Below, piece after piece: positions 25,448 to 37,550 of a DNA stretch of 37,550 nt. Under the pieces are notes generated by a model. It saw only the letters and a program-made list of their open reading frames with translations, was not told where the DNA came from and made no database searches. The stretch comes from an uncultured Gammaproteobacteria bacterium (lineage in GTDB: Bacteria; Patescibacteriota; Microgenomatia; Levybacterales; UBA12049). Location: positions 1 through 37,550 of the forward strand of contig CAYYJP010000002.1 in NCBI GenBank assembly GCA_964472285.1, in the 5' to 3' direction. The translations under genes were made by a program, and so were the position numbers. Numbering within the stretch: the first letter of the stretch is position 1; each line of letters starts with the position of its first letter.

Positions 25448-25518
25448 TGCCGAGTCGTCTAATGGTAGGACTGCAGATTCTGGATCTGCCTATTGGGGTT
25501 CGAATCCCTGCTCGGCAG
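25448..25518 (+). tRNA. tRNA-Gln (anticodon CUG)
   Basis: Hand-folded cloverleaf. Acceptor stem TGCCGAG/CTCGGCA, D arm GTCT-AATGGTA-GGAC, anticodon arm GCAGA-TTCTGGA-TCTGC (U33, CTG, G37), T loop TTCGAAT, discriminator G. The 3' CCA is not encoded (the following bases are CAC). Confidence 0.9.
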
Positions 25519-25615
25519 CACTTTTTCAATATCAGCCTCTTTTGCTACTTTTTGGTGCAATGGCTTTTTAGGCGTTTATAGTATATTTTAAGGGTTGGGA
25601 GTATAATAATTAATA

Positions 25616-29985: not shown

Positions 29986-30273
29986 TTATTTTTTCTTTTT
30001 CTCTTGGAAATACTTTTTAGTCATTAAAGCATATCCTCCTAAAATTACACCAAAACCAATAATAACGCCTGATTGAATAAAGTCATATTTTAGCTGTGCA
30101 CCTACAGTTACGTAATATGGTTTAGGATCTGCTTTTTGAACATATTTTCCATCTATGGTCAAATTAGTTAGCGTAATAAATGTACTAAATATAAAATAAA
30201 GTGCCCAGAGAATAATCCAAGAAGCTAAAATATAAAAAGGGTACTCATTTAATTTTTTAGGTAAACGTATCAT
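29986..30273 (-). CDS. Hypothetical 95-aa two-TM membrane protein
   Basis: Start taken at ATG 30273, one nt after the upstream gene's TAA, which implies tight coupling. It has two hydrophobic helices and a Lys-rich tail. Confidence 0.5.
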   Translation of the reverse strand: MIRLPKKLNEYPFYILASWIILWALYFIFSTFITLTNLTIDGKYVQKADPKPYYVTVGAQLKYDFIQSGVIIGFGVILGGYALMTKKYFQEKKKK

Positions 30274-30274
30274 T

Positions 30275-30538
30275 TTATTTAGGCAGTGATTCACACACCT
30301 TTCCATCCTTATCTTTATCTAAGTTAAATTTATCAACTTTTGCTCCACCATTTTTTATAAAAAAATCCTGCGCATCTTCTTGTGTAAGAAAATTTTTACA
30401 TGTAACACTAGCAGTTGGGTTAACAGAAGGGTATTTTCTTAATTTTATATATTCTGGGCCAATAGAGTAATTTAGCCAAATAAGAAATGAGAATATAAAG
30501 AAAGTAATAATACTCCAAAAATAACTATTTCTTGTCAT
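30275..30538 (-). CDS. Excalibur calcium-binding domain protein with an N-terminal TM anchor
   Basis: C-terminus CKNFLTQEDAQDFFIKNGGAKVDKFNLDKDKDGKVCESL carries the Excalibur DxDxDGxxCE motif. Confidence 0.65.
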   Translation of the reverse strand: MTRNSYFWSIITFFIFSFLIWLNYSIGPEYIKLRKYPSVNPTASVTCKNFLTQEDAQDFFIKNGGAKVDKFNLDKDKDGKVCESLPK

Positions 30539-30587
30539 TAGTATTATTAAATACCCTTTTAAGCTTTATGTCTAGAAGAATAAATAA

Positions 30588-30860
30588 TTATCTTTGGGGG
30601 ATTATCTTATCGAAATCATTAGGAGGAATATAGTATTCTTGGAAAGATAAATCGACATACCAATCCCATAATGCTTTTCTATTATCAATACTTGGTTTTG
30701 GAACATCAGCTCTATCTATCTCTACTAATACTGGGAATGCAGCTTTTGCAAGTCTTGTAGATAAGTCGTTATCAAGTTTTCTCTCTGGTCTTCTTCCAGT
30801 TTCCAATCTTTCATAAAACCCAGGAATTATTTGTACCACTTCTTCTGCAAACTTTGACAT
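30588..30860 (-). CDS. Hypothetical 90-aa protein (possibly the 3' part of a frameshifted larger gene)
   Basis: ORF only. Its reading frame stays open about 80 nt upstream of the ATG without a start codon. Confidence 0.4.
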   Translation of the reverse strand: MSKFAEEVVQIIPGFYERLETGRRPERKLDNDLSTRLAKAAFPVLVEIDRADVPKPSIDNRKALWDWYVDLSFQEYYIPPNDFDKIIPQR

Positions 30861-31138
30861 ATCATTAAGTAGGCTAATAACAGCCGCATCTTTTATTAAA
30901 CTTTTAATATCTATACCAGTATTGCTGCAATCATTAAAAGTCTTAGATAAGCTTTTTGAGCGTCTTTGCCAACCGTAAGAGTTTGTCCTTCAAGCATAGC
31001 AGTTATAGTTGTGTCCACATTGGTTTGAAGAGTATCAATAAATTTACCCAATAAGGATTTGCAAGAAGAATAAAGGGCAATTGTGTACTTTAAGCAGGTA
31101 GGTTGAGAATGGTTTAGTCTTAATCCAATAACTAGAAG

Positions 31139-31390
31139 TTATGGCATACAGGTTTTTATTTCTTGTAGAGAAAAACCCAGTCTTTTTATTTGACCTAAAT
31201 ATCTTCCCCTTGTGTGCTTATCATAATCTTTTCTTTCAAGTATAACGGTTATAAAAGGTCTAAGGTTGGGGTCTGATGTTGAATGTGGACTTTTATATTT
31301 TAAATGGCTTGAGCCAGTAGAAAGTTGCTTAGCAAAACCTAAACAAAGAAGACAGGCGATAAGTTCTTTATATCCAAATGATAGGCTCAT
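31139..31390 (-). CDS. hicA: HicA-like mRNA interferase toxin
   Basis: YKELIACLLCLGFAKQLSTGSSHLKYKSP...ITVILERKDYDKHTRGRYLGQIKRLGFSLQEI follows the HicA/YcfA pattern (GS-H plus a C-terminal basic helix). A 4-nt overlap links it to the upstream gene. Confidence 0.6.
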   Translation of the reverse strand: MSLSFGYKELIACLLCLGFAKQLSTGSSHLKYKSPHSTSDPNLRPFITVILERKDYDKHTRGRYLGQIKRLGFSLQEIKTCMP

Positions 31391-31740
31391 CTACTAATTG
31401 ATTGATGAAAAACATCAGACGAATAAGAAGCACTTACATTAATTTTCTCATCTATATCAGAACTATTGTCAGATAGGTTAATTAATCTTTTTTGTTCAGA
31501 TAAAGGTGGTACAAAACGAATTTCGTCTTGGAGTTCTTTGGGAATATCAAAATATGTACATATTAGGTCATTTACCTGAAAGTAAAGATGATTCAAGTTA
31601 TCTGCTTCAGTAAAAACATCATACTCAGGTAATTCTGCCAATAAAACACCAGAATTACTTTTAACAACAGAAACTTTAATTTTTTGAGGAAGACTCAATA
31701 AATCACTCTTATTCATGGAAACCGCCTTTCGTTGTTTCAT
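31387..31740 (-). CDS. HicB-like antitoxin candidate (N-terminal HicB/UPF0150 fold, no recognisable DNA-binding domain)
   Basis: VLLAELPEYDVFTEADNLNHLYFQVNDLICTYF resembles the HicB partial RNase H-like fold. It is translationally coupled to hicA. The start could instead be the internal ATG at 31716. Confidence 0.45.
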   Translation of the reverse strand: MKQRKAVSMNKSDLLSLPQKIKVSVVKSNSGVLLAELPEYDVFTEADNLNHLYFQVNDLICTYFDIPKELQDEIRFVPPLSEQKRLINLSDNSSDIDEKINVSASYSSDVFHQSISR

Positions 31741-31775
31741 TATGCTCTTTTAAAAATTATATGTCAAACTGGGTA

Positions 31776-31804
31776 TTGACAGCAGGTACTTAAAGCTGTA
31801 CAAT
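31776..31804 (+). promoter_or_regulatory. Consensus promoter TTGACA-17-TACAAT for the transposase
   Basis: TTGACA at 31776-31781, a 17-nt spacer, then TACAAT at 31799-31804. The ATG is 6 nt downstream, which looks leaderless. Confidence 0.6.
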
Positions 31805-31810
31805 ACTAGT

Positions 31811-32689
31811 ATGAACAAAAAGTTTACATTTAAAGATTTCCTCAAAAGGTATCCTAATGACGAAGCTTGTCTGAAAGAGATATACAACAATCGTTTCCCA
31901 GAGGGCGTTAATTGCGTTAAGTGCAAGAGACTAAGAAAATATTATCCTCTAAAAGGCAGGACTACTTTTTCTTGCGGGTTTTGTGGTACACAGATAAGTC
32001 CTCTAACGGATACAATCTTTGAAAAGTCTGCTGTTTCTTTAAGACTTTGGTTTTATGCAATGTTTCTTATGATTAAGACAAGAAGCGGTATATCAGCTAA
32101 ACAACTTGAAAGGGAGTTAGGCGTTTCGTATAAGACAGCTCATAGAATGTTTAAAATGATAAGACTACTTATGCAGGAACAGCCAACCTTGCTTGAGGGA
32201 AATGTTGAAGTTGACGAGACTTTTGTAGGCGGAAAAGGAAGAAATAGAGCAACAAAACCTCATTTCAATGAAATACCAAAAGAGGTAGTCTGGGGTGCGG
32301 TTCAAAGAGGCGGTAAAGTTTATGCAAAACATGTTGCTAATACTGGCAAATGGACGCTTTTAGAACAGATACAGCAAAACGTAGATAAAAATGCAACTAT
32401 TATGACTGATAACTGGAGAGGATACGACCAACTATCTAAATATGGATATAATCATTTTGCAGTCAATCACGGGGTATCTGAGTACGTTAGAGGCGAGATA
32501 CACACAAATACTATAGAAGGTGTATGGTCTCAGCTAAAGAGAGGAATTACAGGCGTTTATAGACATGTATCAAAAGAATACTTACAGGATTACGTAAATG
32601 AGTTTACCTTCAGATATAACTACAGGCACCTAGAAAATGGAATGTTTGACCTGTTATTTAGTCGTGTTTCGGTTGTGAAGCCCGTTTAA
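31811..32689 (+). CDS. IS1595-family (ISXO2-like) transposase
   Basis: An N-terminal transposase zinc ribbon (FPEGVNCVKCKR...FSCGFCGTQ), then a DDE-type core (VEVDETFVGGK, IMTDNWRGY, HTNTIEGVWSQLKRG). Confidence 0.85.
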   Translation: MNKKFTFKDFLKRYPNDEACLKEIYNNRFPEGVNCVKCKRLRKYYPLKGRTTFSCGFCGTQISPLTDTIFEKSAVSLRLWFYAMFLMIKTRSGISAKQLERELGVSYKTAHRMFKMIRLLMQEQPTLLEGNVEVDETFVGGKGRNRATKPHFNEIPKEVVWGAVQRGGKVYAKHVANTGKWTLLEQIQQNVDKNATIMTDNWRGYDQLSKYGYNHFAVNHGVSEYVRGEIHTNTIEGVWSQLKRGITGVYRHVSKEYLQDYVNEFTFRYNYRHLENGMFDLLFSRVSVVKPV

Positions 32690-32837
32690 GAAGCTCTAAG
32701 AAGTCTTGTTTGCCCACGTGAATATTTTGCTTAATCCGCTTTTGTATTTCTTTTCGTTTGATGTTAAATGGTGTTTTTTTCACAAAATAATTATACCATA
32801 AGTTGAAAACTTGACTTTTAACTTTCAGGATGTTAAA

Positions 32838-32868
32838 CTTGCAATCAAAGCTATTGCAAGTTTTTTTT
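32838..32868 (+). terminator. Intrinsic terminator
   Basis: CTTGCAAT (32838-32845), a 7-nt loop, ATTGCAAG (32853-32860), then a T8 run (32861-32868). Confidence 0.75.
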
Positions 32869-32872
32869 ATTG

Positions 32873-32881
32873 TGCTATAAT
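32873..32881 (+). promoter_or_regulatory. Extended -10 promoter TGcTATAAT
   Basis: TG at 32873-32874 and TATAAT at 32876-32881. The ATG at 32891 is 9 nt downstream with no SD. Confidence 0.5.
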
Positions 32882-32890
32882 AAGTTTACT

Positions 32891-33370
32891 ATGGCAGACT
32901 TTCAAAAAGCAATAAATGAATCAAAAACTTTGCTAGCATCTTTTGGTGTTGATTCTCCCCCAATTCCTTTAACAGATATTGTCGCTTCTAATGGATTAAA
33001 TATTGTATATGCTGATTTCTCAGTCATTCCAGATGGAAATAAAATTGCTGGATTTATAGATTTTAGTAAAAGCAGGATTGTTGTTAATAAAGATGATTCC
33101 CCGAATAGACAACGATTTACTATTGCTCACGAATTAGGACATTATATAATGCATCAAGATTATGTAAAAGATGAAAGTAAATATAATGTTTTACTTAGAG
33201 TTCCCCTAAGGGATAAAGGTTATACTTCAGAAGAACAAGAAGCTAATTGTTTTGCTGCCAATCTTCTTGTTCCTAAAGAATTATTAGAAAAATATAAAAA
33301 TATTCCCAATACGATTAAGGCTTCAATTTTTGCTGTTTCTGAAGATGTAATAAAATACCGCAAAATATAA
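32891..33370 (+). CDS. ImmA/IrrE-family (M78, COG2856) zinc metallopeptidase
   Basis: An HEXXH motif (TIAHELGHYIMH) followed by EEQEANCFAANLLVP, the diagnostic ImmA/IrrE pair. The start is taken at ATG 32891 rather than the TTG at 32870. Confidence 0.8.
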   Translation: MADFQKAINESKTLLASFGVDSPPIPLTDIVASNGLNIVYADFSVIPDGNKIAGFIDFSKSRIVVNKDDSPNRQRFTIAHELGHYIMHQDYVKDESKYNVLLRVPLRDKGYTSEEQEANCFAANLLVPKELLEKYKNIPNTIKASIFAVSEDVIKYRKI

Positions 33371-33380
33371 CCTCAAAAAT

Positions 33381-33806
33381 ATGACTACTGAAACATCACG
33401 TTCAACCTCTATATCCACAAGCCAACCAATACCTTTTAAGGATATTAAATCACAAGCAGAAGGAATTAATCCTTCAACAGAACTAGAATCAGCAGAGATA
33501 AATCAATCTTCGGCAGCCGAATATCAAGCACAAAAACTAGCATTAGAATTATACTCGCAGGAACAATTTTTGGATTTACAAAGATCTTGGGGAAAAGAAA
33601 TAAAACTACAAATATGGGTAGTAATTTTATTTCAAATAGGGTTTGTTCTTCTTGTAGGCTTCAATGTTAACGGATTTACAACAAACCTAAGCACTCTTCC
33701 ATATATGTATGTTTTAGTAATACTTCAAACATTAGCCAACATTGTTGCTTTAGGTTATGTAATAGTAAGATTTCTATTTCCCAGTTTTAATTCACCAAAG
33801 AAGTAA
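33381..33806 (+). CDS. Hypothetical 141-aa protein with a Ser/Thr/Gln-rich N-terminus and two C-terminal TM helices
   Basis: It begins 10 nt after the immA stop. The segments IWVVILFQIGFVLLVGF and YMYVLVILQTLANIVALGYVIV are hydrophobic helices. Confidence 0.55.
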   Translation: MTTETSRSTSISTSQPIPFKDIKSQAEGINPSTELESAEINQSSAAEYQAQKLALELYSQEQFLDLQRSWGKEIKLQIWVVILFQIGFVLLVGFNVNGFTTNLSTLPYMYVLVILQTLANIVALGYVIVRFLFPSFNSPKK

Positions 33807-33815
33807 TTTTTAACC

Positions 33816-34004
33816 TCATTTTTTTCCTATAAATACAGTAATTCCTAAATAATCAAAAATAAACCATATAATTACTCCCGCTAATAATAGCTTAACAAGA
33901 AGAGCATACGTCCATTTTATAATTCCGTATTTTCCTATCAATCTCATATCCTTGACATTTGGTATAGCAATACCTATAATTGCTTTAACAGTATCCATAA
34001 TCAT
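33816..34004 (-). CDS. Candidate 62-aa hydrophobic peptide
   Basis: ORF with one clear TM helix (LLVKLLLAGVIIWFIFDYLGITVFIG). It is convergent on the immA operon and lies entirely upstream of the plus-strand terminator at 34007. Confidence 0.3.
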   Translation of the reverse strand: MIMDTVKAIIGIAIPNVKDMRLIGKYGIIKWTYALLVKLLLAGVIIWFIFDYLGITVFIGKK

Positions 34005-34006
34005 TT

Positions 34007-34031
34007 AAGTCGGTTCGTACCCGACTTTTTT
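34007..34031 (+). terminator. Intrinsic terminator (plus-strand polarity)
   Basis: AAGTCGG (34007-34013), loop TTCGTAC, CCGACTT (34021-34027), running into a T6 tract (34026-34031). Confidence 0.55.
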
Positions 34032-34395
34032 GCTTTTTAAGTGTCATTCATATTCTTATTTTTCATACATCTACTATAACTTACGGATTCAACCCCTATG
34101 GTAAGCATTGAGGTTATACCAAGGCAAGATAGTGTTTTTCCCAAAAAAAATCCCATTCAGTTTGTTGCCAAGAACTTTTAAAGTTTTGGCTCTGAACGGG
34201 TTTTTCCCTTATTACTTAATATACTACGCTTTTATGGGGTATCTGTCAACACTTCGTGTCTACCCTTACCTGCTCAAACTACATAAGAGCCGAATAAAGT
34301 CTTCCATGTTTAATAAATATAAGTATAGTACATACATAGAATATGTTTCAAATAAACTAAAAACAAAATTAACTAAAGACATTTTTGTGTTTTTA

Positions 34396-34404
34396 TGTTA
34401 CAAT
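34396..34404 (+). promoter_or_regulatory. Extended -10 promoter TGtTACAAT
   Basis: TG at 34396-34397 and TACAAT at 34399-34404, 16 nt upstream of ATG 34421. Confidence 0.4.
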
Positions 34405-34420
34405 TTGCCTTGTTAAAAAT

Positions 34421-35284
34421 ATGGGAAGGAAATTATTTGTAGTATTTATACTACTTTTTTGTTTTTTATTGGGATCTAGGCCTTTGGATGAAGGTTATGC
34501 CATTAGTTGTAAAAACTCAAGACCTTTAACTGCTCCTATACTTTTATCAGCACAAGCAAAAGATAGAAGTGTTGTTTTGGTATGGCAGGAGGCAGCAGAT
34601 CCGGTAACTCATTATTTAGTTGCTTATTCAAGAAATGAAACAGACCTTGAATATGGAAATCCAAACGTTGGGTCAAAGGGTACAACTACATATACAGTTA
34701 CAGAACTAACAAATGGAGTAAAGTATTACTTTAAAGTACGTGGTGAGAATGGTTGTAAGCCTGGAAAATTTTCTAATAAGCTTTCAGCAATAGCAGGATA
34801 TCCAAATGGATTTACAGTTTCAAGACAACCTAATTTATCAATTTATAGAACTGTTGAGGGAGCAAGTGAATCAGCAAACGTAGAGGAAGTTGAAGATGAA
34901 AAAGCACCACCACCTGCACCATTAACAACGGTTGAAGGGCAATCATTAAGTTGCACAACTTGTATAGGGTTACAAATGCTTGGAATAGAATTATTGCTTT
35001 TAATTAGCTTTTTCTATTTTGCTAAAAGGTATTTAGTTTTAAAAAGAATTTATTCTTTACTAATACCAATTACATTATATTTAGTTTTTTACAAGATTAA
35101 TGGGGTATGTCCTAATGATAATTTTTGGTGTCAATATTTTCCTCAACTAAATGTAATTTTATTTATGGCTTTTATAATCATTTATAAAAATAAATATTTA
35201 AATTTAAATTTTAAATTTATGGAAAATTTATTAAAAAATAAAAATGTTAAAAAAACAGTAAATAAAAAAAGGAAGAAAAAGTAA
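34421..35284 (+). CDS. Secreted fibronectin type III domain protein with a C-terminal 3-TM anchor
   Basis: Signal peptide MGRKLFVVFILLFCFLLGS, an FN3 pattern (SVVLVWQEA..YLVAY.....YTVTELTNGVKYYFKVRGEN), an acidic/Pro linker, three hydrophobic helices and a Lys-rich tail. The start is taken at ATG 34421 rather than the TTG at 34385. Confidence 0.7.
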   Translation: MGRKLFVVFILLFCFLLGSRPLDEGYAISCKNSRPLTAPILLSAQAKDRSVVLVWQEAADPVTHYLVAYSRNETDLEYGNPNVGSKGTTTYTVTELTNGVKYYFKVRGENGCKPGKFSNKLSAIAGYPNGFTVSRQPNLSIYRTVEGASESANVEEVEDEKAPPPAPLTTVEGQSLSCTTCIGLQMLGIELLLLISFFYFAKRYLVLKRIYSLLIPITLYLVFYKINGVCPNDNFWCQYFPQLNVILFMAFIIIYKNKYLNLNFKFMENLLKNKNVKKTVNKKRKKK

Positions 35285-35286
35285 TT

Positions 35287-37550
35287 ATGGAATCATTTAT
35301 TTCTAACATTCAATTATTTTTAGCAGATATACCATTTTACTCACAACAGTATTTAGATAGGTATTCATATCTAGTACCGCTTGGAGTAATAGGTATTTGG
35401 AGATGGTCTGTTTGGATGATGAAAGAAATCATTGGTCTTCATTATCATCCTAAGACAGGTGCATATAAAGCAAGCGTGTCTATTATTACGCCTGTTTATA
35501 ATGAGAATCCAATAATATTCACTCAAGCTTTGGAATCTTGGGAGAAAAATAAACCTGCAGAAATAATTGCCGTTATTGATTACACAGATAAGGTTTGTAT
35601 TAATATTTTTGAAAAATTTAAGAAAACTTTCCCTGGCGCAGTATTAATTATTACCAAAATCCCTGGGAAAAGACAGGCATTAGTTGATGGAATAAAAGTA
35701 GCAAAAAGTGAAATCGTTGCATTGGTTGATAGTGATACTATTTGGGCAAATGATACTTTAGAAAATGGACTTCCTCCCTTTAATGATAAGAAAATGGCAG
35801 GAGTTGCTACATATCAAAGTGTTTTAAATCCTAAGACTTTTGCACAAAAAATCTTTGATATACAGCTTGATTTAAGATACAAACATGAATACCCATTCTT
35901 AGCTGCTTGTGGTAATGCTCTTGTTTGTCTATCAGGAAGAACAGCGTTCTATAAAAGAGATGTAGTAACACCTATGCTTGATGATCTTGTTAATGAAAAG
36001 TTTTTAGGAAGACCAGTTATTTCTGGAGATGATAAAAGATTAACATACTTAGTTTTAGCAGCAGGATATAAAGTTGCATATCAAAGTAATTCTCATGTCT
36101 ACACACCAGGAATGGAAAGTCTAAGAGCATATCTTAAGCAAAGGTTAAGATGGACAAGGAATGGATTAAGAGCAGATCTTGGAGCAATACTTAGTGGTTG
36201 GCCATTAAGACATCCAGCACTACTATTTTTCCAAGTAGATAAATTTTTACAATCATTTGTAGTTATACTTAGCCCAATTTATTTCTTTGTTTCATTGTAT
36301 CTTCAACTCTGGGTTGCAGCAGCAGTAATTTTCTGCTGGTGGTTTGTTAGTAGGACTATCAAAATTCATCCATATTTATCAAAAAATCCTAAAAATATCT
36401 ATATAGTTCCTGGATATGTTTTATATTCTTTCTTTACTGGTTTAGTTAAAATATATTCTTTCTTTACTCTTAATACGCAAGGTTGGATAACAAGGTGGGA
36501 TAAATCAAGACTTCCACATATTAAATTTATTAACGCGCTCCCTCCTTATATTGCAACTCTTGGAGTAGTATTATTTTTAGCTTATGGAGTTTATTTATAT
36601 AAACAACATACATATTTAATTCCTCAAATACAAAGACAGCAATTATTGTCACAAGCTTTGCCTTCTGATACAAAAACAATTGCAAGCGCAGCAGTATTGG
36701 GTACTTACTCTGTGCAGAAAGATCTTTTAGCAAAACGCTATGAAGTTTTGGGAAATGAAAGCTTAGATCAAATTGCAGATAAATTTAGCGTTAATAGTGA
36801 ACAACTCTATTTTGCAAATATGGCTAAAGCACCAAATAGAGTTATTGAAAAAGGACAAGTAATATCCATTCCAGGAAAAGATATAACATTAGCAGGTGAA
36901 CAAAGTCTTGTAAGACCAGTTAGAGACGCAAGTGTTATTAGTGTTTCTTATGACAGTAAGACAAATACTCTTTTAGTAACTGGAAGAGGAAAGGTTATTA
37001 CTCTTAAAGACATTTTAAATAGAGGTGGAAAAAATTATATTTCCGAGATAGCTCCATATACATGGCTTTCAAAAGCAACTATTTTCCTTGCAGATGGATT
37101 AACACTTAAGTTAGATAAAAACGAAGTAAAGTGGCTTAAGCTTGAGAGCAATAAAGATGGTTTTGCAATGCTTAGAGGAAGAAATAGCGACATTATTATA
37201 AATGGGGTAAAAATTACATCTTGGGATAGTACAAAAAATGATTATGATACAAATCTAAACGATGGTAGAAGTTTTATCATGGTTAAAGACAATTCAAGGA
37301 TGGATTTATATGATTCTGAAATTTCTTATCTTGGATATCCAACATCATCAGATATAACAGTTTCTCCATATGGAATATCATGGAAATTATCAAGCTTAAA
37401 GTTGAAGAAAAATCTTTTAACAGGAGAAGTTATTAACAGTAAATTCCATCATAACTATTTTGGAGCATTTACATATGGTGCAACAGGAATGGTTTGGAGA
37501 GGCAATGAATTCTATAGCAATATTAGATATGGTCTAGATCCTCATGATGA
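35287..37550 (+). CDS. Processive GT2 polysaccharide synthase (HAS/NodC-like) fused to LysM and a right-handed beta-helix (AlgG/AlgE-type); 3' end outside the window
   Basis: Absent from the ORF track. My translation from ATG 35287 stays open for 754 codons to the window end. It has PVYNE (35491-35505), DSD (35728-35736), GDDKRLT (36025-36045), QRLRW (36139-36153) and several TM helices. It also has LysM (YEVLGNESLDQIADKFSVNSEQLYFANMAKAPNRVIEKGQVISIPG, 36739-36876) and a beta-helix-like C-terminal region ending in YGLDPHD (37528-37548). Confidence 0.85.
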   Translation, partial: MESFISNIQLFLADIPFYSQQYLDRYSYLVPLGVIGIWRWSVWMMKEIIGLHYHPKTGAYKASVSIITPVYNENPIIFTQALESWEKNKPAEIIAVIDYTDKVCINIFEKFKKTFPGAVLIITKIPGKRQALVDGIKVAKSEIVALVDSDTIWANDTLENGLPPFNDKKMAGVATYQSVLNPKTFAQKIFDIQLDLRYKHEYPFLAACGNALVCLSGRTAFYKRDVVTPMLDDLVNEKFLGRPVISGDDKRLTYLVLAAGYKVAYQSNSHVYTPGMESLRAYLKQRLRWTRNGLRADLGAILSGWPLRHPALLFFQVDKFLQSFVVILSPIYFFVSLYLQLWVAAAVIFCWWFVSRTIKIHPYLSKNPKNIYIVPGYVLYSFFTGLVKIYSFFTLNTQGWITRWDKSRLPHIKFINALPPYIATLGVVLFLAYGVYLYKQHTYLIPQIQRQQLLSQALPSDTKTIASAAVLGTYSVQKDLLAKRYEVLGNESLDQIADKFSVNSEQLYFANMAKAPNRVIEKGQVISIPGKDITLAGEQSLVRPVRDASVISVSYDSKTNTLLVTGRGKVITLKDILNRGGKNYISEIAPYTWLSKATIFLADGLTLKLDKNEVKWLKLESNKDGFAMLRGRNSDIIINGVKITSWDSTKNDYDTNLNDGRSFIMVKDNSRMDLYDSEISYLGYPTSSDITVSPYGISWKLSSLKLKKNLLTGEVINSKFHHNYFGAFTYGATGMVWRGNEFYSNIRYGLDPHD

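Follow-up and report, generated by a model that had tools for sequence, protein, structure and literature searches.

Positions 1 to 37,550 of contig CAYYJP010000002.1 (assembly GCA_964472285.1; the whole 37,550-nt stretch is called the window below) belong to a Candidate Phyla Radiation (CPR) bacterium of the order Levybacterales and harbor two adjacent genes, one for an M78/ImmA-IrrE-type zinc metalloprotease and one for a small protein with two transmembrane (TM) helices. By analogy with characterized systems, the pair is probably an operon-like mobile toxin-antitoxin (TA)/abortive-infection module of Rosmer-like type, i.e., with an ImmA-protease antitoxin, in which the membrane protein would be the toxin and the M78 protein its neutralizing partner. 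The observations behind this reading are the gene anatomy, the conserved pairing of the two genes, the exchange of the protease for the antitoxin Panacea, the remote, transitive link of the membrane protein to validated membrane toxins, and the accessory status of the locus. An earlier inspection of the DNA letters (the original prediction) had proposed an affiliation with abortive-infection and defense modules and regarded the architecture as unusual; the affiliation gained from the conserved pairing and from the links to Panacea and Rosmer, while the unusual architecture did not hold, as an M78-only protease with a TM toxin has been validated in Gordonia phage Kita (Ernits et al., 2023; PMC10440598). 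The architecture is thus already known from a phage-borne pair of the same layout; what is new here is the putative toxin family, hitherto unannotated, and its presence in a CPR genome.

The reading would give a likely function to a small membrane protein family (∼190 clusters at 50% identity) that is annotated in no database. It would place one toxin scaffold under two unrelated neutralizers, M78 or Panacea, from CPR bacteria to Alphaproteobacteria and phages, and it would add a probable TA/defense module to a CPR genome of ∼0.5 Mb. To our knowledge, CPR organisms of this kind have not yet been grown alone, and their defense content must therefore be read from sequence.

Five alignments were used: A1 (window TM protein family), A2 (M78 proteins), A3 (wide TM family), A4 (PanA-linked TM set), and A5 (upstream region). 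The two genes are as follows.

32891-33370 (+ strand): M78/ImmA-IrrE-type zinc metalloprotease gene, 159 aa (Pfam PF06114, PADLOC, alignments, PDB sequence matches)
33381-33806 (+ strand): 141-aa membrane protein gene, proposed membrane-depolarizing toxin (hydropathy, AlphaFold2 model, family alignments A1 and A3, hhalign)

Anatomy of the gene pair

The 159-aa protein matched Pfam Peptidase_M78 (PF06114) with an E-value of 2e-17 and 63.5 bits against a curated cut-off of 22. Translation most likely starts at ATG 32891 rather than at TTG 32870, because the homologues keep the N-terminus MADF.KA. The zinc site H80-E81-x-x-H84 and the acidic E..EAN motif (E114/E115/E117-A-N) are invariant in A2, and HEXXH is retained in all 17 TM-paired M78 proteases; this strict retention of the catalytic site would say that cleavage matters. 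The protein consists of the peptidase core alone, with neither a helix-turn-helix (HTH) domain nor a C-terminal sensor domain. The solved structures nearest by sequence are CapP (7t5t) and IrrE (3dte), matched in the peptidase core only. Among PADLOC models, the best match was capP (E 1.5e-21), followed by RmrA models (E 1e-12 to 1e-7) of 357-400 positions, which aligned to the protease across only ∼145-256 of 380. The PADLOC scan of the two proteins was informative for the protease (capP and RmrA models) and returned no match for the TM protein. No HTH/Xre gene was found among the scanned open reading frames (ORFs) on both sides of the pair, as the original prediction had stated.

The gene for the 141-aa protein begins 10 nt past the stop codon of the protease gene. 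Hydropathy placed two hydrophobic segments, TM1 (∼74-98) and TM2 (∼106-133), around a short loop. In the AlphaFold2 model (mean predicted local distance difference test score, pLDDT, of 67), a long helix (33-93) runs into the membrane and is followed by a second helix (106-132), while residues 1-16 score below 50, in keeping with a disordered start. The N-terminal region is variable, acidic, and placed as cytoplasmic, with Ser, Thr, and Gln making up 26 of the first 72 residues of the protein. The ORFs, Pfam, hydropathy, and AlphaFold2 thus agree with the earlier description of an ImmA/IrrE protease followed 10 nt on by a two-TM protein with a disordered Ser/Thr/Gln-rich N-terminus. The family alignments revealed a conserved juxtamembrane helix (QEQFLDLQRSW), a conserved tail (FLFP..KK), and conserved polar residues in the helices (Q116, N120, T100, and N102); strongly conserved motifs of the window family itself are a PYMY loop and LQTLANIVALG.

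The 141-aa protein had no match in Pfam, PADLOC, or PHROG. A search of 5.8 billion proteins returned just five homologues, at 50-66% identity, and a profile of seven close homologues retrieved 192 clusters at E ≤ 1e-3 from 1.84 billion representatives. Among the matches listed, the clusters are 86-185 aa long, bar one repeat-protein artefact. They share the motif G..(F/Y)..LR..WS, followed by TM1, a short loop, TM2, and an end of the form ..NF.QIVG(M/L)GYIVVKFLFP. All named members are labeled "hypothetical protein." The possibility of a class II holin was considered, as the topology would fit; it was rejected, since neither the window nor any related locus has an endolysin-like gene next to the pair.

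Recurrence of the pair across loci

An M78 gene lies directly upstream of the TM protein gene in all five database homologues, in genome G230, and in three metagenome loci; the paired loci from the TM homologue searches are L001, L002, L003, L007, L016, L017, L047, L048, and L049, L048 carrying ORFs identical to those of L007. Within the same order, a homologue was present in one of 244 other genomes, and the metagenome scan yielded its three loci. Approached from the protease, the outcome was the same: all seven M78 homologues with at least 42% identity (from a Patescibacteria metagenome-assembled genome [MAG], a Doudnabacteria MAG, Rhizobium deserti, Tritonibacter, Ahrensia, Epibacterium, and Leisingera) have a gene for a two-TM protein of the same design downstream, while three M78 matches at 32-35% identity (L025-L027) have a classical Xre gene upstream instead. 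Altogether, ∼18 other distinct paired loci were found in Patescibacteria and Alphaproteobacteria (∼19 with the window), and none of the ∼18 carries an Xre gene. Several paired loci (L001, L017, L049, and L019-L023) lack any insertion sequence (IS).

The gap between the two genes ranges from -53 to +28 nt across loci. The pairwise identities of protease and TM protein co-vary (r = 0.88 over 120 pairs, which are not independent of one another). The flanks of the pair vary and include a ChlI-domain gene, an Eco57I-type restriction-modification (RM) methylase gene, an HD-domain gene, CTP synthase, and an IS; the downstream genes differ in every homologous locus. Recurrent linkage of the TM homologues to M78 genes had been set beforehand as the test on which the original prediction would stand or fall, and every homologue that could be placed is preceded by a gene for one of two proteins, an M78 protease or a Panacea antitoxin. 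The pairing of the M78 and TM genes is therefore real, recurrent, and independent of an Xre gene.

Exchange of the protease for Panacea and relationship to membrane toxins

Genome scans with A3, which took the TM protein rather than the protease as their query and covered sampled genomes, again placed the closer TM members behind an M78 gene, in five loci (among them L029, L033, L044, and L046). Remote members in eight loci are preceded by a gene for a ∼150-210-aa SocA_Panacea antitoxin protein. In L034-L040, this partner matched SocA_Panacea (PF13274) with E-values of 1e-13 to 1e-24; the eighth, in L045, is Panacea by sequence only. Panacea (PanA) has been described as a "hyperpromiscuous" type II antitoxin (Kurata et al., 2022; PMC8832971) and is validated as an antitoxin acting through direct binding (PMC8832971; PMC10440598). 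Several of the validated PanT toxins are small, have a charged N-terminus ahead of C-terminal TM helices, and depolarize and permeabilize Escherichia coli (PMC8832971). For one PanT membrane toxin, structure predictions together with mutants indicated that Panacea makes contact with the N-terminal/juxtamembrane part (Ernits et al., 2023; PMC10440598). That M78 and Panacea partners replace one another agrees with the general picture drawn by the NetFlax network.

Profile comparison with hhalign linked the M78-associated and the Panacea-associated TM proteins. A1 matched A4 with a probability of 96.7% (E 4e-10, 80 columns) and A3 matched A4 with 98.8% (E 5e-17, 84 columns). As controls, A1 against the reversed A4 gave 0.2% (E 0.28, 9 columns), and the best of 30 comparisons of A1 with A4 shuffled in 12-column blocks gave 39% (E 3e-4). 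The likeness of A1 to A4 exceeds shared hydrophobicity, since the controls preserve the hydrophobic layout. The toxin RmrT of phage Kita matched A4 (96.1%, E 3e-9), as did a PanT-like protein of an E. coli phage (94.1%, E 1e-7).

In Escherichia phage 1720a-02 (L050 395-1454), a PanA gene is separated by 22 nt from a gene for a 182-aa TM protein; the same spacing is on record for the validated PanAT pair of Shiga toxin-producing E. coli (STEC). This TM protein, which is the PanT-like protein compared with A4 above, resembles Kita RmrT (BLAST, 26% identity, E 4e-4), which ties PanT to the RmrT membrane toxins. In the alphaproteobacterial locus L034 (635-1704), the Panacea gene is followed by a 122-aa ORF and then by a TM protein copy shortened to 81 aa. 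The 122-aa ORF has no Pfam match, and its C-terminal region resembles RelE/ParE toxins; the locus may be a three-gene or a decaying variant.

Comparison with known systems

The ImmA-protease "hub antitoxin" node D25 was described by Ernits et al. (2023; PMC10440598), and its proteins often carry an N-terminal HTH (PMC10440598). The same study validated the pair of Gordonia phage Kita, composed of RmrA(D25), annotated as Peptidase_M78 only, and the TM protein RmrT(D5). Kita RmrT halts transcription, translation, and replication at once and depolarizes and permeabilizes the E. coli membrane; RmrT is toxic when expressed by itself, and the protease lowers the toxicity, neutralizing RmrT only partly (PMC10440598). 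E. coli carrying the pair is protected from phages Bas54 and Bas59 (PMC10440598). In the Kita genome, gene 32 encodes the 178-aa M78-only protein (gp32, YP_009301393) and gene 33 the 119-aa toxin (gp33, YP_009301394) with two C-terminal TM helices, and the two genes overlap by 4 nt.

The Kita pair is similar to that of the window in having a short M78-only protease first (178 vs. 159 aa) and a TM protein second (119 vs. 141 aa), in the charged N-terminus and two C-terminal TM helices of the second protein, and in genes that overlap or abut. Kita RmrA also shares the PADLOC pattern of the window protease, with capP as the best model and RmrA models covering the peptidase core only, and the two proteases are 32.7% identical across residues 59-157. 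They differ in that the two TM proteins are only ∼10% identical in a multiple alignment and that the Kita pair resides in an actinophage, whereas the window pair belongs to a CPR bacterium. In the broad sense of RosmerTA (NetFlax D25), i.e., a conserved bicistronic M78 gene with a toxin-like gene, the window pair has the required layout, and its TM protein has the architecture of RmrT(D5)/PanT-type toxins, which are ∼100-180 aa long and have their TM helices at the C-terminus, behind a charged or unstructured N-terminal part.

Canonical RosmerTA was reportedly defined for defense finders by Millman in 2022. It resembles the window pair in combining a zinc-peptidase antitoxin with a variable toxin. 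However, canonical RmrA models span 357-400 positions and the window protease has no match N-terminal to the peptidase core, so that, at 159 aa, it falls outside RosmerTA in the strict sense of a long RmrA with a region ahead of the core; unlike in canonical RosmerTA, no PADLOC toxin model matches the TM protein.

PanA-PanT pairs (E. coli STEC T3; Bartonella T12/D11; Kurata et al., 2022; PMC8832971), compared here by description, likewise have the antitoxin gene just upstream, and their toxins share with the window protein a charged or unstructured N-terminus and a short helix ahead of the TM helices. They differ in having a Panacea-domain protein where the window has an M78 protease. The window pair thus lies outside PanAT, Panacea being the partner of its remote homologues only. 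ImmA/ImmR, IrrE/DdrO, and CapP/CapH have the protease family and the catalytic motif in common with the window; in these systems, the gene of the HTH repressor substrate is adjacent, whereas none lies beside the window pair or in the ∼18 other loci. The window protease also lacks the GAF-like sensor domain that IrrE and CapP carry. A CapP-type regulator of CBASS (cyclic-oligonucleotide-based antiphage signaling system) was ruled out by the absence of CapH and CBASS genes.

Upstream region

Three signals precede the protease gene.

32811-32839 (+ strand): distal promoter-like site TTGACT-17-TGtTAAACT (consensus scan; alignment A5), conserved before the modules of L007 and L017
32835-32863 (no strand): perfect 11-bp palindrome/hairpin AAACTTGCAAT-N7-ATTGCAAGTTT, then T8 (scan; fold -10.6 kcal/mol, z -2.75)
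32854-32881 (+ strand): proximal extended -10 promoter-like site TTGCAA-16-TGcTATAAT (consensus scan)

The extended -10 promoter and leaderless-looking start of the original prediction were recovered by the consensus scan at 32854-32881. The proximal site stops 10 nt short of ATG 32891, which implies a leaderless or near-leaderless mRNA. A TGnTATAAT-like box occurs 6-10 nt 5' of the start in L001 and L017 and, in weaker form, in L002, L007, L047, and L049; as it recurs in most Patescibacteria copies, an mRNA of leaderless type seems typical of the family.

About 90 nt upstream of the protease gene could be aligned among the window (32803-32890), L007 (925-1011), and L017 (52-138), which are otherwise unrelated loci, with a distal promoter-like consensus of TTGAC.-17-TG.TAAA.T. 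The palindrome occupies the same position in all three, and the changes in its arms are symmetric, i.e., compensatory (CTTGCAA/TTGCAAG, CTCGCAA/TTGCGAG, and ATCGCAAGC/GCTTGCGAT); the full T-run follows it in the window only. The palindrome was recovered when the three upstream regions were folded singly, but not in their RNAalifold consensus, owing to loops of different length. It overlaps the -10 box of the distal promoter-like site and the -35 box of the proximal one, and on this account an operator appears at least as likely as a terminator. The hairpin had earlier been taken for a terminator insulating the module from the neighboring IS; this was not sustained, since the same palindrome and promoter-like site precede homologous modules lacking IS1595, and the hairpin is accordingly part of the module.

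Proposed mechanism and alternative readings

Toxicity, neutralization, the use of proteolysis, the trigger, and a role in defense are what we infer for the window pair, along the following lines. The 141-aa protein would insert into the membrane as an N-in/C-in helical hairpin and, when free, would oligomerize and depolarize or permeabilize the cell membrane. The HTH-less M78 protease, translated from the same leaderless transcript, would hold the toxin harmless through its cytoplasmic N-terminal and juxtamembrane region and, its catalytic site being strictly conserved, may cleave that region. A trigger such as phage infection would upset the balance, whereupon the toxin would be released and the cell would stop.

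Several points weigh against this reading. The experiments behind the toxin assignment come from the Kita and PanT systems, not from the window family, and the window TM protein is linked to the validated toxins by a relationship that appears real but transitive, via A4: compared directly, Kita RmrT was not significant against A1 (E 0.15) and matched A3 (66%) over TM2 only. Short TM proteins can resemble each other by composition, although the controls argue otherwise here. The partial neutralization in Kita casts some doubt even on the antitoxin role of such M78 proteins. No PADLOC model matches the TM protein, tblastn found no match to it in 50,697 phage records, and no relative turned up in IMG/VR with the A1 profile. 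A DNA-binding regulator is suggested by the conserved palindrome, but neither protein has a recognizable DNA-binding domain. Finally, the location of the Epibacterium and Leisingera pairs between tuf and rpsJ is odd for a defense gene.

A variant of the proposed mechanism, possible though rather doubtful, is that the M78 protein cuts the cytoplasmic N-terminal tail of the toxin, as a proteolytic antitoxin or as a trigger, rather than binding it stoichiometrically, and that the palindrome between the two promoters may be read by a third factor. If true, the purpose of the protease activity in Rosmer-type antitoxins could be studied most simply in this compact CPR/alphaproteobacterial family.

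Cleavage is also central to an unlikely but coherent alternative, the protease-gated effector of the original prediction, in which the membrane protein is kept inactive by its own N-terminal region and the M78 protease, activated like IrrE and CapP by a signal of infection or DNA damage, cuts this region off, firing the pore. Invariant catalytic residues in 17 of 17 paired proteases would be expected if cleavage matters beyond binding. In PADLOC and PDB, the protease comes closest to CapP and IrrE, both of which are signal-activated. The TM protein has a variable N-terminal region with predicted disorder, as a cleavable tail might have, and the Kita protease neutralized its toxin only partly (PMC10440598). 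However, the Kita TM protein is toxic on its own in E. coli and addition of the protease lowers the toxicity (PMC10440598), which is the reverse of gating; remote relatives have Panacea, an antitoxin acting through direct binding, in the same slot; and the 159-aa protease lacks the GAF-like sensor of IrrE and CapP, its PDB matches being confined to the peptidase core.

It is improbable that the two genes form a non-toxic regulatory or housekeeping pair, with a membrane sensor or anchor whose tail is processed by the protease in an envelope-stress or signaling pathway. Such a role would suit the Epibacterium and Leisingera copies located among core genes, the polar TM residues Q116, N120, T100, and N102, which could mediate specific protein contacts, and the conserved upstream palindrome, which hints at regulated expression. 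It agrees poorly with the flanks, which differ from locus to locus and include no conserved regulator, sigma factor, or transporter, with the sporadic distribution and the absence from same-genus genomes, with the exchange of partners with the Panacea antitoxin, and with the profile-level link to toxins shown to depolarize membranes.

A decayed ImmA/ImmR-type switch, in which IS1595 destroyed an Xre/cI-type partner and the membrane gene is an unrelated neighbor, has next to no credibility: an IS1595 copy does lie 200 nt upstream and the more distant M78 relatives of L025-L027 do have Xre upstream, but ∼18 other loci keep the M78 and TM genes without Xre, several of them without an IS, the window retains an undamaged copy of the conserved promoter/palindrome region, alignable with L007 and L017 back to ∼32803, and the loss of Xre through IS insertion, which the original prediction had raised for comparison with uninterrupted loci, is ruled out by the uninterrupted, Xre-free loci L001, L017, and L049.

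Genomic setting and distribution

The window corresponds to contig C2 of a 535-kb genome that is 84% complete. The features around the pair are as follows.

30576-34341 (no strand): strain-specific insertion, 3.77 kb, carrying the pair, a HicAB-like pair, and IS1595 (blastn/tblastx vs. G183:C59 and G182:C1)
31811-32689 (+ strand): IS1595-family transposase gene, a neighbor and not part of the module (Pfam DDE_Tnp_IS1595, 4e-42; one copy in the assembly)
32658-32783 (- strand): 41-aa ORF located between the IS and the module and overlapping the transposase gene at its 3' end (no PHROG match)
33816-34004 (- strand): 62-aa hydrophobic ORF, convergent with the pair (ORF list), not conserved downstream of any homologous module
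34007-34027 (+ strand): terminator-like hairpin ∼200 nt downstream of the pair, past the 62-aa ORF (scan)

The accessory status of the pair was evident from two genomes of the same genus. In G183, the flanks 29989-30575 and 34342-36039 are joined with just 33 nt between them, and the second, G182, also lacks 31075-34318. The insertion contains two small ORFs, the HicAB-like pair (with a weak HicA match), the single-copy IS1595, the M78/TM pair, and the 62-aa ORF; its base composition does not set 30576-34341 apart. It has the appearance of a miniature TA/defense islet ∼5 kb downstream of a tRNA-Gln gene (25448-25519). The IS1595 copy lies ∼200 nt upstream of the pair; an inverted-repeat search for its ends gave no convincing terminal repeats. 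The 41-aa ORF may have arisen by chance or may be what is left of a gene at the IS border, and the 62-aa ORF is probably outside the system, since it is not conserved downstream of homologous modules.

The TM protein was present in none of the four same-genus genomes and in one of 400 sampled genomes of the phylum. Elsewhere, a phage portal gene adjoins the pair in Rhizobium deserti (L019), an Eco57I-type RM methylase gene adjoins it in L002, and a relative resides in a Helicobacter prophage (L042). The sporadic distribution and these mobile settings fit a mobile TA/defense cassette. In Epibacterium ulvae (L022 320-1250) and Leisingera sp. JC1 (L023 507-1445), the pair lies upstream of rpsJ, and in the latter, the EF-Tu gene is on the far side of the pair, a highly expressed core location that is unusual for a TA-like cassette.

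A small protein carrying the motif GGKARAxxLTPE(K/Q)RxEIAxKAAxARW adjoins the M78/TM pair at three distinct loci, two from Patescibacteria and one from Ahrensia, in varied orientation: L001 3493-3765 (-), L007 1947-2186 (-; equivalent to L018 3930-4169 and L048 4444-4683), and L021 1667-1987 (+). It has no Pfam match and could be a chance neighbor or an occasional third component.

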